In this document: piece after piece, positions 50,881-52,956 of the stretch
Numbering within the stretch: the first letter of the stretch is position 1
How the letters are laid out: the number at the start of each line of letters is the position of its first letter
Assembly (NCBI GenBank): GCA_963702475.1
Contig: CAVPCT010000003.1
Location: 864,001-928,000, forward strand
Length of the DNA stretch: 64,000 nucleotides
Source: an uncultured Thermoleophilia bacterium
GTDB lineage: Bacteria; Actinomycetota; Thermoleophilia; UBA2241
Direction: 5' to 3'
The notes under the pieces: generated by a model
The model's input: only the letters and a program-made list of their open reading frames with translations
What the model was told of the DNA's origin: nothing
Database searches by the model: none
Position numbers and translations under genes: made by a program

Positions 50881-52956
50881 ATGCCTGTGGACCCGAGCGA
50901 GTTCCACGCCGTCGAGGCCGGCGAGGTCGTCAGCTGCCCCGAAGGATACGCCGCCTTCGTGCCGGCGCCACTGCCGCCGAAGTTCGCCTACACGCGCGAG
51001 CTCGTCCTCGCCCTGTCGAGGGCCGATGCCGCCCTGGGCGAGCTCTCCGGCATCGGCACGCAGCTGCCCGACCCGGACCTGCTCGACGCGCCGTTCAAGC
51101 GCCAGGAGGCGCTGTGCTCCTCGCGCATCGAAGGCGCCGACGTGAGCCTCTCGGACCTGCTTCTCGATCAGGTGGGCGCGGCGCGCCCCAGCGTTCCGCG
51201 CGACAATCTGCGCGAGGTGCGCGCCTGCATCGCCACCCTGCGCTTCGGCGTGCAGCGGCTCAAGGAGGAGCCGCTCTCGCTGGACTTCGTGCGCGCCCTG
51301 CACGAGCGCCTGCTCATGGGCGAGGTGGGGCAGGCGCGCACGCCCGGCGAGTTCCGCACCTCGCAGAACTGGATCGGGCCTCCCGGCGCCACGCTGGCCA
51401 CCGCCACGTACGTGCCCACGCCCATCGCGCAGTTGCACCAGGCGCTCTCGCAGTGGGAGGCGTTCCTGCAGGAGCGCGGCGCGGTGCCGGACCTCGTGCA
51501 GTGCGCCATGCTTCACGCGCAGTTCCAGAGCATCCACCCGTTCGTGGGCGGCAACGGCCGGCTCGGGCGGTTGCTCATCACGCTGTTCCTCATGGAGCGC
51601 GCCCGCCTCAGCCGCCCGCTGCTCTACCTCTCCGCCTTTCTCGAGGGTCACCGCGACGAGTACTACGTGCTGCTCCAGCGGGTGCGAACCCACGGCGAGT
51701 GGGAGCCGTGGTTGCGCTTCTTCGCCCAGGGCGTCTACGAGACGGCGCGGCGCGCGTCGCGCCAGGCGCGCGCGCTCATCGGCCACTACGAGCGCGATCG
51801 AGAGAAGCTCCGAGGGCATACGCTAGAGTTGGCCGACGAGCTGTTCCGCACCCCGTGCATGACCGTCCCCGAGGCTCAGCGGGTGCTCGACGTGACGAAC
51901 CCGACCGCACGACGCGCCGTGCGCGAACTCGAGGCCAGGGGTCTGCTCGAGGAGTGGGGCGAGAAGAGCTGGCCGCGGGTCTACCTGGCGCGGCACGTGC
52001 TCGACGCCGTGCTGCACCCCGTCGAGGACCTTCGCGCCCTGGCCGCCGCCGAGGCGCAGGGCGCCGTCATCAAGTCCGCGGCTGCGGAGACAGAAGGCCC
52101 GCCGCGTCGCGCCGACCGCCTCATGGCCGAGGCCATGGACATCATCGATGCGGCCCGCGAGCGCGGCGCCCAGTTGCGCCTCACCGGAGGGCTCGCCATC
52201 CGCCGGTACTGCACCGACCTCGTCTTCATGGACCGCGAGTACTCGGACATCGACTTCGTCGCGCTGTCCTCCCAGGCCAAGGAGGTGGGCGAGACCTTCG
52301 AGGCGCTCGGCTACACCGAGAACCGCTACGTGAGCCAGTCCACCGGCCACGCCCAACTCCAGTACATCAAGGACGAGGCGCTGCGCCACGCCGCCGAGAA
52401 GGCGGCGGGCAGCGCGTGTGACGCATCGTACGAGCCGCCTCTGGTGGATCACGTGGACGTCTTTCTCGACGTCATGCGCATGGATCACGATGTCGACGTG
52501 CAGGACCGCCTCGACATCGACGAGTACGCCATAGCGCCGGCAGACGCGTTCATCGCCAAGATGCAGATCGGCAAGATCAACCAGAAGGACGTCCACGACA
52601 TCGTCGCCCTGGTGAAGGACGTGCCTCTGCGCGACGTGGACGACGACACCAGCATCGACGTGCTCCACATCGCCGACGTCTGCTCGCGGGACTGGGGCCT
52701 GTACCACGACATCACGACGAACCTGGACAAGGCCCTGGCGATGGCCGGCGACTACGGCCTCACCGCGGACGAGGAGCACCGCGTGCTCGCCCGGCTGCGG
52801 GCCATCAAGGAGTCGGTCGAGAGCGCCAGCAAGACGTTCCTCTGGCGGCTGCGCGCCAGCGTGGGCCAGCGGGTCGCCTGGCGCCGGGAGATCGAAGAGA
52901 CCGAAGGCACCACGGTGATCGCTCCGGAGTGGGACTACCGGCGCGACCTCGGCTGA
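50881..52956 (+). CDS. Fic-family protein (Fic_N-Fic-wHTH) fused to a nucleotidyltransferase-like domain
   Basis: SSRIEG, PGEFRTSQNWIG, HPFVGGNGRLGR, HTH, then GGLA...DIDF...DVF NTase-like pattern in one continuous ORF; GGAGGG RBS. Confidence 0.85.
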   Translation: MPVDPSEFHAVEAGEVVSCPEGYAAFVPAPLPPKFAYTRELVLALSRADAALGELSGIGTQLPDPDLLDAPFKRQEALCSSRIEGADVSLSDLLLDQVGAARPSVPRDNLREVRACIATLRFGVQRLKEEPLSLDFVRALHERLLMGEVGQARTPGEFRTSQNWIGPPGATLATATYVPTPIAQLHQALSQWEAFLQERGAVPDLVQCAMLHAQFQSIHPFVGGNGRLGRLLITLFLMERARLSRPLLYLSAFLEGHRDEYYVLLQRVRTHGEWEPWLRFFAQGVYETARRASRQARALIGHYERDREKLRGHTLELADELFRTPCMTVPEAQRVLDVTNPTARRAVRELEARGLLEEWGEKSWPRVYLARHVLDAVLHPVEDLRALAAAEAQGAVIKSAAAETEGPPRRADRLMAEAMDIIDAARERGAQLRLTGGLAIRRYCTDLVFMDREYSDIDFVALSSQAKEVGETFEALGYTENRYVSQSTGHAQLQYIKDEALRHAAEKAAGSACDASYEPPLVDHVDVFLDVMRMDHDVDVQDRLDIDEYAIAPADAFIAKMQIGKINQKDVHDIVALVKDVPLRDVDDDTSIDVLHIADVCSRDWGLYHDITTNLDKALAMAGDYGLTADEEHRVLARLRAIKESVESASKTFLWRLRASVGQRVAWRREIEETEGTTVIAPEWDYRRDLG

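Follow-up and report, generated by a model that had tools for sequence, protein, structure and literature searches.

The window considered here is the whole stretch of 64,000 nucleotides analysed from an uncultured Thermoleophilia bacterium (Actinomycetota, UBA2241; GenBank assembly GCA_963702475.1, contig CAVPCT010000003.1, positions 864,001 to 928,000), and at positions 50881–52956 of its forward strand lies a single uninterrupted frame of 691 amino acids plus a stop codon, as read from the list of open reading frames (ORFs) and their translation. Sequence comparison and structural modelling identify the product as a lineage-specific derivative of the SoFic-type class II Fic proteins, joined by a linker to a C-terminal nucleotidyltransferase (NTase) with intact catalytic residues. 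A preliminary description, made from the letters alone, had proposed two nucleotidyl-transfer folds in one chain, a class II Fic protein with a winged helix-turn-helix (wHTH) and a degenerate Fic loop followed by an NTase with its GG/DxD/D signature; the frame and every motif that it named were recovered on translation, and both folds were borne out by Pfam, alignments and models. The gene and the parts of its product are as follows.

50881..52956, forward strand: whole gene of the Fic-wHTH-NTase fusion (ORF, homologues, genome scan)
50874..50880, forward strand: ribosome-binding site GGGAGGG, read from the sequence, abutting the ATG at 50881
50995..51255, forward strand: N-terminal helix (residues 39–60) and Fic_N region (residues 44–125; Pfam, full-length model)
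51118..51135, forward strand: inhibitory-helix motif SSRIEG, residues 80–85, the inhibitory Glu being E84 (translation)
51271..51591, forward strand: Fic core domain, residues 131–237 (PF02661)
51322..51327, forward strand: E148-V149, in the loop preceding the flap (clade comparison)
51535..51570, forward strand: Fic motif HPFVGGNGRLGR, residues 219–230 (translation, alignments)
51547-51549, forward strand: G223, which replaces the metal-binding Asp/Glu of the Fic motif (translation, SoFic alignment)
51814..52038, forward strand: C-terminal wHTH region, about residues 312–386 (SoFic alignments, model)
52042..52098, forward strand: Ala-rich flexible linker, residues 388–406 (predicted local distance difference test score, pLDDT, below 50; low identity)
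52099..52887, forward strand: NTase domain, residues 407–669, with an N-terminal alpha/beta catalytic lobe and a C-terminal helical lobe (AlphaFold2, fold matches)
52186..52191, forward strand: NTase G436-G437, in GGLA, residues 436–439 (alignments)
52246..52254, forward strand: NTase DxD, D456-I-D458 (alignments)
52393..52446, forward strand: low-complexity variable loop in the NTase, residues 505–522 (relatives' alignment)
52456..52458, forward strand: third catalytic carboxylate D526, in VDVF (alignments)
52558..52599, forward strand: helical-lobe motif K560-x-Q562 ... K569-D570-x-x-D573 (113-sequence family alignment)
52888..52953, forward strand: C-terminal tail, residues 670–691, ending ...TEGTTVIAPEWDYRRDLG, predicted disordered yet conserved (pLDDT, identity)

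An alternative GTG start at 50824 is possible for the fusion ORF; homologues start at the equivalent of M1.

Residues 131–237 matched the Pfam Fic family (PF02661) at 62.8 bits (cut-off, 24) and residues 44–125 matched Fic_N at 58.4 bits (cut-off, 26.7). The best solved relatives of this part were the chains of SoFic/EcSofic (Shewanella oneidensis SO_4266, PDB 3EQX/3ZCN), with E 1e-36 over residues 21–358 in a search of PDB sequences and, by Foldseek, template modelling (TM) scores of 0.74–0.78 over about 360 columns at about 27% identity. The PADLOC model for SoFic matched residues 22–377 (E 4.3e-99; 354 of 361 model positions), and the NCBIfam SoFic equivalog (NF046030) returned 138.8 bits, below its cut-off of 550. 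By sequence, the Fic-wHTH part therefore has the architecture of SoFic, whose domain order equals that of residues 1–387, and is not a SoFic equivalog. The wHTH is assigned from the alignments to SoFic, which extend to residue 358 (PDB) and 377 (PADLOC), and from the helix/strand pattern of the full-length model, with Pfam HTH matches at residues 317–359 being weak and under their cut-offs. SSRIEG conforms to the class II pattern (S/T)xxxE(G/N), lies N-terminal to the Fic core and aligns with the inhibitory helix of SoFic, which likewise shares the His/Arg/Tyr ATP contacts; an xxxxEG motif was present in 141 of 151 fused database matches. Helix 39–60 of the full-length model aligns with the SoFic dimerisation helix (L28–L50 in section 5 of a preprint), dimerisation being only predicted for the fusion, and the same section describes SoFic as binding its own promoter via the dimer and the wHTH. 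SoFic differs from the fusion in having Asp where the fusion has Gly at the metal-binding position, and in lacking the appended 285-residue NTase. Also among the closest structures (E 8e-29 by sequence) was PDB 7cb8, a SoFic-like FIC-domain protein of Mycobacterium marinum with CDP, which hints that the nucleotide preference in the SoFic-like subfamily need not be ATP.

Because HPFIDGNGRTGR of SoFic aligns opposite HPFVGGNGRLGR of the fusion, the Asp-to-Gly change at residue 223 that had been read from the sequence is real: the motif keeps its catalytic His and anion-binding GNGRxxR but has lost the acidic metal-binding residue. Gly occupied this fifth motif position in 150 of the 151 fused database proteins (Ser in one), compared to Asp in 118 of 119 unfused sisters (Val in one), the latter drawn from 120 matches found with the 45%-identical Fic protein of locus L074, one further match having no motif. 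Covariation of the change with the fusion holds for these two sets, but fails for one fused clade that bears Glu (clade B, below) and for two fused proteins with HPFVDSNGRLGR. The query from L074 (L074:2873-4021), an unfused SoFic-like protein of a Fimbriimonadaceae bin, itself has Val at the acidic position (HPFLVGNGRVGR). A second departure from the canonical sequence, QFQSIH for QFETIH, had been read correctly but is minor variation within the family, as the 121 fused sequences include QFESIH (n = 72), QFETIH (n = 21), QFQAIH (n = 10), and QFQSIH (n = 8).

Across 69 fusions, E84, G85, H219, P220, F221, N225, G226, R227, G229, R230, Y261, and Y262 were invariant, and the pocket residues among them correspond to the ATP contacts reported for SoFic (E73, H198, R206, and Y241; PMC12249575). 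Mean identity among the Gly-type fusions was 75% in the Fic part, 67% in the NTase, 34% in the linker, and 77% in the tail. With His, Asn, both Arg, the inhibitory Glu, and the ATP-binding Tyr all invariant, the sequences argue firmly that the Gly-type Fic domain is not decaying. The only Fic domains in this genome are two Gly-type fusions, and a DNA pattern for HPFxGGNGR run over 401 genomes of the phylum returned only these two copies and one match in genome G137, which was taken as chance, as no locus ORF of at least 200 amino acids there held a Fic motif.

For EfFIC, PMC6408439 has the acidic residue of the motif binding metal and being critical for AMPylation, with deAMPylation abolished in the E115A variant, and Gly at this position should thus disable both canonical Fic reactions. 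The earlier suggestion that the Fic part serves as an eraser is accordingly disfavoured for the Gly-bearing clade by the E115A result. A parallel is BepC of Bartonella, in which the conserved motif is likewise altered at exactly the acidic position with the remainder kept (HxFxKGNGRxxR), and which is reported in PMC7842960 to act non-catalytically by binding. BepC differs in that its Lys contacts the ATP phosphates in place of Mg, while the Gly of the fusion has no side chain, and in being a secreted FIC-OB-BID effector rather than a wHTH-NTase fusion.

A HMMER search with residues 400–691 against 1.84 billion cluster representatives returned 1510 matches with E no higher than 0.001, of which 928 had E no higher than 1e-10. 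Among the 150 best, most were lone proteins of 245–320 amino acids; other architectures were fusions with a C-terminal phosphoribosyltransferase (527 and 570 amino acids) and with an N-terminal MarR-type wHTH (396 amino acids; proteins P0220, P0242, P0185, and P0266). In an alignment of 113 family members (numbered so that adding 399 gives full-length numbering), D57, D59, K161, W206, and G263 were invariant and G37, D127, H137, R144, Q163, D171, D174, K252, W256, R259, and W268 were conserved in at least 90%. Among the 69 fusions, G436-G437 and the DxD (D456, D458) were invariant and D526 was conserved in at least 90%. As the catalytic positions are invariant or at least 90% conserved in the family alignment, the NTase triad is intact.

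The AlphaFold2 model of the NTase domain (pLDDT 93.4; predicted TM score, 0.90) was compared with solved structures by VIA-align, in which the top matches were all NTases (Z 8.8–11.9): ANT(2'')-Ia (Z 11.9, 154 residues aligned), MenT1 (Z 11.8, 173 residues aligned), JHP933 and a fungal NTase-like protein (5uvd; Z 10.4 each), LnuA (Z 9.7), TglT/MenT3 (Z 9.6), and MenT4 (Z 8.8). Foldseek gave a probability of 1.00 to ANT(2'')-Ia and MenT1. As judged from the model, the pol-beta-type fold of the C-terminal domain, which the preliminary description had read from three short motifs, is settled. The G-S auto-phosphorylation site of TglT is GG in the fusion, and the K560...KD..D573 motif may resemble motif IV of DUF1814.

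Sequence models place the domain less closely. Against PDB sequences, the family profile matched only ANT(2'')-Ia (E 0.016) and LnuA (E 0.13), both marginally and over GGxA...DxD, with no match to a MenT. NTP_transf_5 (PF14907) was the sole Pfam family to touch the NTase and its lone relatives repeatedly (E 3e-4 to 5e-7), although every score (15.9–29.9 bits; 19.6–20.9 on the NTase of the fusion) was short of the gathering cut-off of 31.2 and only the N-terminal lobe was covered. Aminoglyc_resit / ANT(2'') (PF10706) scored 15.7–18 bits on the fusion, below its cut-off of 21, and 23.5 bits on one lone relative (P0151). No Pfam match of AbiEii (DUF1814) to the NTase domain was found at E up to 1, and PADLOC returned nothing for the NTase part or for four relatives, lone or fused otherwise, save a marginal match of the PsyrT model (E 0.0063) to the phosphoribosyltransferase-fused P0220. 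The ESM Atlas returned only clusters named 'nucleotidyltransferase family protein', without function. Thus, while ANT(2'')-Ia and LnuA are top structural matches and the sole PDB profile matches, they are of about 160–185 residues, lack most of the conserved helical lobe, and nothing points to an antibiotic substrate here; and while MenT/AbiEii (DUF1814) proteins share the bilobed NTase with a helical C-terminal lobe, they offer no sequence-model match for this NTase, which also has no adjacent antitoxin gene. The Fic half is of a known kind; the large family to which the NTase half belongs has no curated model.

The linker (residues 388–406) has a pLDDT below 50. The segment aligned to residues 501–524 varies from 9 to 78 residues in the relatives' alignment (24 in the protein of the window), and in P0097, P0100, P0103, and P0109 this catalytic-lobe loop has grown to as much as 78 low-complexity residues rich in Ala, Pro, and Glu. 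The tail (residues 670–691) also has a pLDDT below 50, yet is conserved at the 77% given above; because a lone NTase in L063 has the same tail, it belongs to the NTase and not to the fusion, and the idea of the tail as a fusion-specific substrate of the Fic domain was dropped for the same reason. A lone NTase close to the fused domain (L070:5785-6999) carries an extra C-terminal CxxC...CPCC, zinc-ribbon-like. Complex prediction between the Fic-wHTH (1–387) and the NTase (407–691) scored 0.00, which is evidence neither way.

There were 262 proteins of 380–1210 amino acids that matched the C-terminal 292 residues, the best 120 of which all carried Fic Pfam domains, mostly at lengths of 685–692 amino acids. 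In a scan of one genome per species, the fusion was found at 75 loci, nearly all in metagenome-assembled genomes labelled Thermoleophilia, Actinomycetota, or Actinomycetes, with a few bins labelled Deltaproteobacteria/Chloroflexia. Within the same GTDB genus, about 15 of the 18 other genomes held a copy of the clade of the window (clade A, below), full-length or split by frameshifts/stops, at 69–79% protein identity; the three without one are of good completeness (93%, 95%, and 100%). In the other families of this class, matches were confined to unfused Fic proteins (about 43% identical) and lone NTases. The fusion, for which a stop or misassembly at the linker had been raised at the outset, thus recurs elsewhere, and a contig from a public run covers 51937–52236 with zero differences, though this contig may derive from the same sample as the window. 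None of the public runs recorded as RNA contains the fusion stretch. That the ORF is an artefact (misassembly or read-through of two genes) or its Fic domain a decaying relic is highly improbable: several relatives in metagenome-assembled genomes are broken by frameshifts/stops (e.g., L033, L043, L044, L054, and L057), but the recurrence, the intact full-length ORFs in 50 assemblies (68 tree rows), the conservation of the Fic part with all of its pocket residues, and the contig that bridges the linker exclude either origin.

A maximum-likelihood tree of the Fic part, built from 78 rows (68 fusions and 10 unfused outgroup sequences, with fused ORFs below 640 amino acids and identical rows left out), divided the fusions into three paralogous clades, with support from the Shimodaira–Hasegawa-like approximate likelihood ratio test of 100 for monophyly of the fusions, 99 for a basal clade B, and 95 for clades A and C as sisters. 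Clade A, to which the window belongs, has Gly at motif position 5 and the tail ...IAPEWDWRRDLG. In clade B (13 rows), the motif is the canonical HPFxEGNGRLGR. Most clade-C sequences read Gly-Gly, while two have HPFVDSNGRLGR and one has HPFVGANGRMGR; the tail of this clade differs from that of clade A. As the basal fused clade B keeps the canonical motif, the fusion is older than the loss of the acidic residue, and the tree places that loss once, on the stem of A and C. The same branch also carries a change of the pre-flap loop from G-V-R-G to G-E-(V/P)-x and of the residue after the inhibitory motif from Thr to Ala, so that the loop reads GE(V/P) in the Gly-type clades compared to GVR in canonical relatives; position 148 is Glu in 93% of clade A and 100% of clade C, and Val in 100% of clade B and 90% of the outgroup.

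The second fusion of this genome (G000:C1:47219-49213; L077:1501-3504) is a clade-C protein, 60% identical, that also has HPFVGGNGRLGR and a different tail, and its gene sits between those of an NAD-dependent epimerase and an AraC/GyrI-like regulator. In the two clade-C fusions with HPFVDSNGRLGR (L060:6001-8079 and L065:809-2926), Asp stands at the acidic position, the next Gly is Ser, and Glu148 is kept. Among the 50 assemblies with intact copies, clade A occurred alone in 27, with B in 12, and with C in five, while C occurred alone in five and B alone in one, counts that come from incomplete bins and from search patterns derived from clade A.

Two features flanking the gene bear on its setting.

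50789..50840, forward strand: conserved AT-rich upstream element, candidate promoter/operator (26 upstream regions aligned)
53091..55064, forward strand: S9 peptidase with PD40 beta-propeller, downstream neighbour (Pfam Peptidase_S9, E 1e-48)

The neighbours in the window include Acyl_transf_3, a class-V aminotransferase, an M50 peptidase, a nitroreductase, and a divergently transcribed cupin; downstream of the fusion lie the S9 peptidase with PD40 repeats, an FMN reductase, NlpC/P60, an MBL-fold hydrolase, and a choline/APH-type kinase. None of these neighbours is a mobile or defence gene. The 135-bp gap between the fusion and the S9 gene holds no terminator-like site, and the two genes are possibly co-transcribed; nor does it hold an ORF of at least 50 amino acids (there is room for about 44 codons at most), so that no small downstream antitoxin is evident. 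An S9 homologue lies directly 3' of the clade-A gene in 31 of the 75 loci, and the gene order clade A, S9, clade B occurs in 10, although, the genomes being close kin, this order may be inherited synteny and not a functional link. The three genes of this cassette (Gly-type Fic-NTase, S9 peptidase, Glu-type Fic-NTase) lie on the same strand with short gaps in L008, L011, L012 (L012:1825-8024, for example), L018, L020, L026, L028, L046, L067, and L073, and the window holds only the first two of them. Upstream of the fusion, an AT-rich block of about 52 bp (TTTGCACG ... TTTGTAAC ... GTATGCTTTCAAAGT) is conserved in 26 clade-A upstream regions in which the rest of the spacer diverges; a consensus promoter scan returned nothing at 50789–50840, and by analogy with SoFic binding its own promoter the block may be a promoter or operator. 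The lone NTase relatives adjoin genes for NAD synthase, a GAF-GGDEF protein, pirin, a DeoR regulator, and an M23 peptidase, and no partner gene recurs among them in the manner of a toxin-antitoxin pair.

Combining sequence evidence with analogy to SoFic, we tentatively favour, at rather less than even confidence, a reading, also raised in the preliminary description, in which the NTase is an active enzyme and the Fic-wHTH module, through ligand binding, dimerisation, and DNA binding, controls its output and expression. The NTase would transfer a nucleotide to an acceptor; the Gly-type Fic domain would be without canonical metal-dependent transfer or removal of AMP, while its pocket would still bind a nucleotide or phosphorylated ligand; and the Fic-wHTH would act as a sensing, dimerising, and DNA-binding regulator of the NTase and of its own promoter. 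We infer that the gene behaves as a vertically inherited, near-core gene of one uncultured Thermoleophilia genus, unlike a mobile defence gene.

Several points weigh against this reading. The functions of both domains are predictions from sequence and models. Retention of the catalytic His and the full anion-binding motif is more than a mere binding module seems to need, and is equally compatible with an active, non-canonical enzyme. The gain of Glu148 with the loss of the neighbouring Arg could be a relocated metal ligand, and two clade-C proteins have Asp again (HPFVDSNGR). The PADLOC match and the toxicity of EcSofic leave a defence or toxin role open, and the fold gives no substrate for the NTase, as the substrates of its structural neighbours are aminoglycosides, lincosamides, or tRNA 3' ends (MenT3, as published, adds pyrimidines to the last of these).

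The main alternative, possible but rather unlikely, is that both domains are active, the Gly-type Fic site using a non-canonical metal arrangement (e.g., Glu84 and Glu148) or no protein metal ligand at all. This would imply a writer and an eraser, or a double writer, acting on one target, like bifunctional nucleotidyl-transfer/removal enzymes. Consistent with it, the invariance of His, Asn, both Arg, the inhibitory Glu, and the ATP-binding Tyr extends to all clades of the 69 fusions, and the Fic part is more constrained than the NTase. The change of V148 to E and the loss of R149 were fixed together with the Gly change, and the fully canonical motif of clade B suggests that the ancestral fusion probably had two active sites. 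Glu-bearing Fic proteins, SoFic included, are moreover described as deAMPylating constitutively. Set against these points are the complete loss of deAMPylation in EfFIC E115A and the critical role in AMPylation described there for the acidic residue. The role of E148 at the active site is only putative, the changes at 148/149 and at 223 fall on one branch and so represent a single event and not repeated covariation, and the Asp-bearing clade-C pair keeps E148, unlike what compensation would give.

By analogy with SoFic acting on EF-Tu or MenT acting on tRNA, the fusion could also be an abortive-infection or toxin module in which the Fic domain or the NTase poisons translation under phage attack or stress and the other part restrains it in the same chain, an explanation that we consider doubtful. 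The PADLOC SoFic match favours it, as do PMC12249575, in which EcSofic is toxic and described as phage-protective, and the AMPylation of EF-Tu by SoFic, which also deAMPylates EF-Tu and switches between the two. The NTase fold is also as close to the MenT1 toxin as to any solved structure, and there are several fusion/NTase paralogues per genome. However, the genes around the fusion, from acyltransferase to NlpC/P60, include none of mobile or defence type, lone NTase relatives likewise sit amid housekeeping genes, and the synteny with 74–79% protein identity across the genus would be unexpected for mobile, patchy defence genes (an expectation only). The NTase part has no PADLOC match and the NCBIfam equivalog score is far short of its cut-off. 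None of six exact peptide words of the fusion matched viral contigs, which is a weak test. The gene context gives no support to the self-regulated toxin system that the preliminary description had raised.

Less probable again, and quite unlikely, is an enzyme/pseudo-enzyme system in which Glu- and Gly-type proteins pair via the N-terminal helix, the NTase writes a nucleotide mark on a protein or RNA, and the Fic pocket, either lacking a metal ligand or using Glu148 as a relocated one, reads or removes that mark. In many genomes the Glu-type and Gly-type fusions flank the S9 peptidase gene. If true, a Fic domain would here have become, in nature, a reader of nucleotidylated targets, or Fic chemistry would proceed without the acidic residue of the motif.

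No paper was found on the Fic-NTase fusion, its three clades, the clade-wide loss of the metal ligand only, or PF14907, in a search that lay outside subscription journals, and public records name the fusion proteins 'Fic family protein'. Fic enzymology rests on the motif HxFx(D/E)GNGRxxR, with EfFIC being the one bacterial enzyme in which the acidic residue was tested. Here the metal ligand alone has been removed naturally, with the rest strongly constrained genus-wide, in a genome without any other Fic protein, and the canonical sister clade provides a natural control for what a Fic pocket does without that ligand. The fused partner opens a first route to the function of a large NTase family for which Pfam has no dedicated model, and the fusion implies that Fic-type and pol-beta-type nucleotidyl transfer would lie on a common pathway in uncultured soil/sediment actinobacteria. 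Automated defence annotation would call the gene 'SoFic', and its housekeeping context warns against reading each such match as phage defence.

The NTase family is expanded in the genomes of the genus (G401–G418), with 1 to 8 query matches each, including many lone copies and several with single in-frame stops. This genome has two lone NTase paralogues, 31% and 34% identical (G000:C3:618849-619571, in L079:1441-2247, and G000:C2:24813-25571, in L078). The copy in L078 has one in-frame TGA; that in L079 follows a gene for a 312-amino-acid protein with a weak metallophosphoesterase match, and both of these proteins are Lys-rich compared to their GC-rich surroundings.

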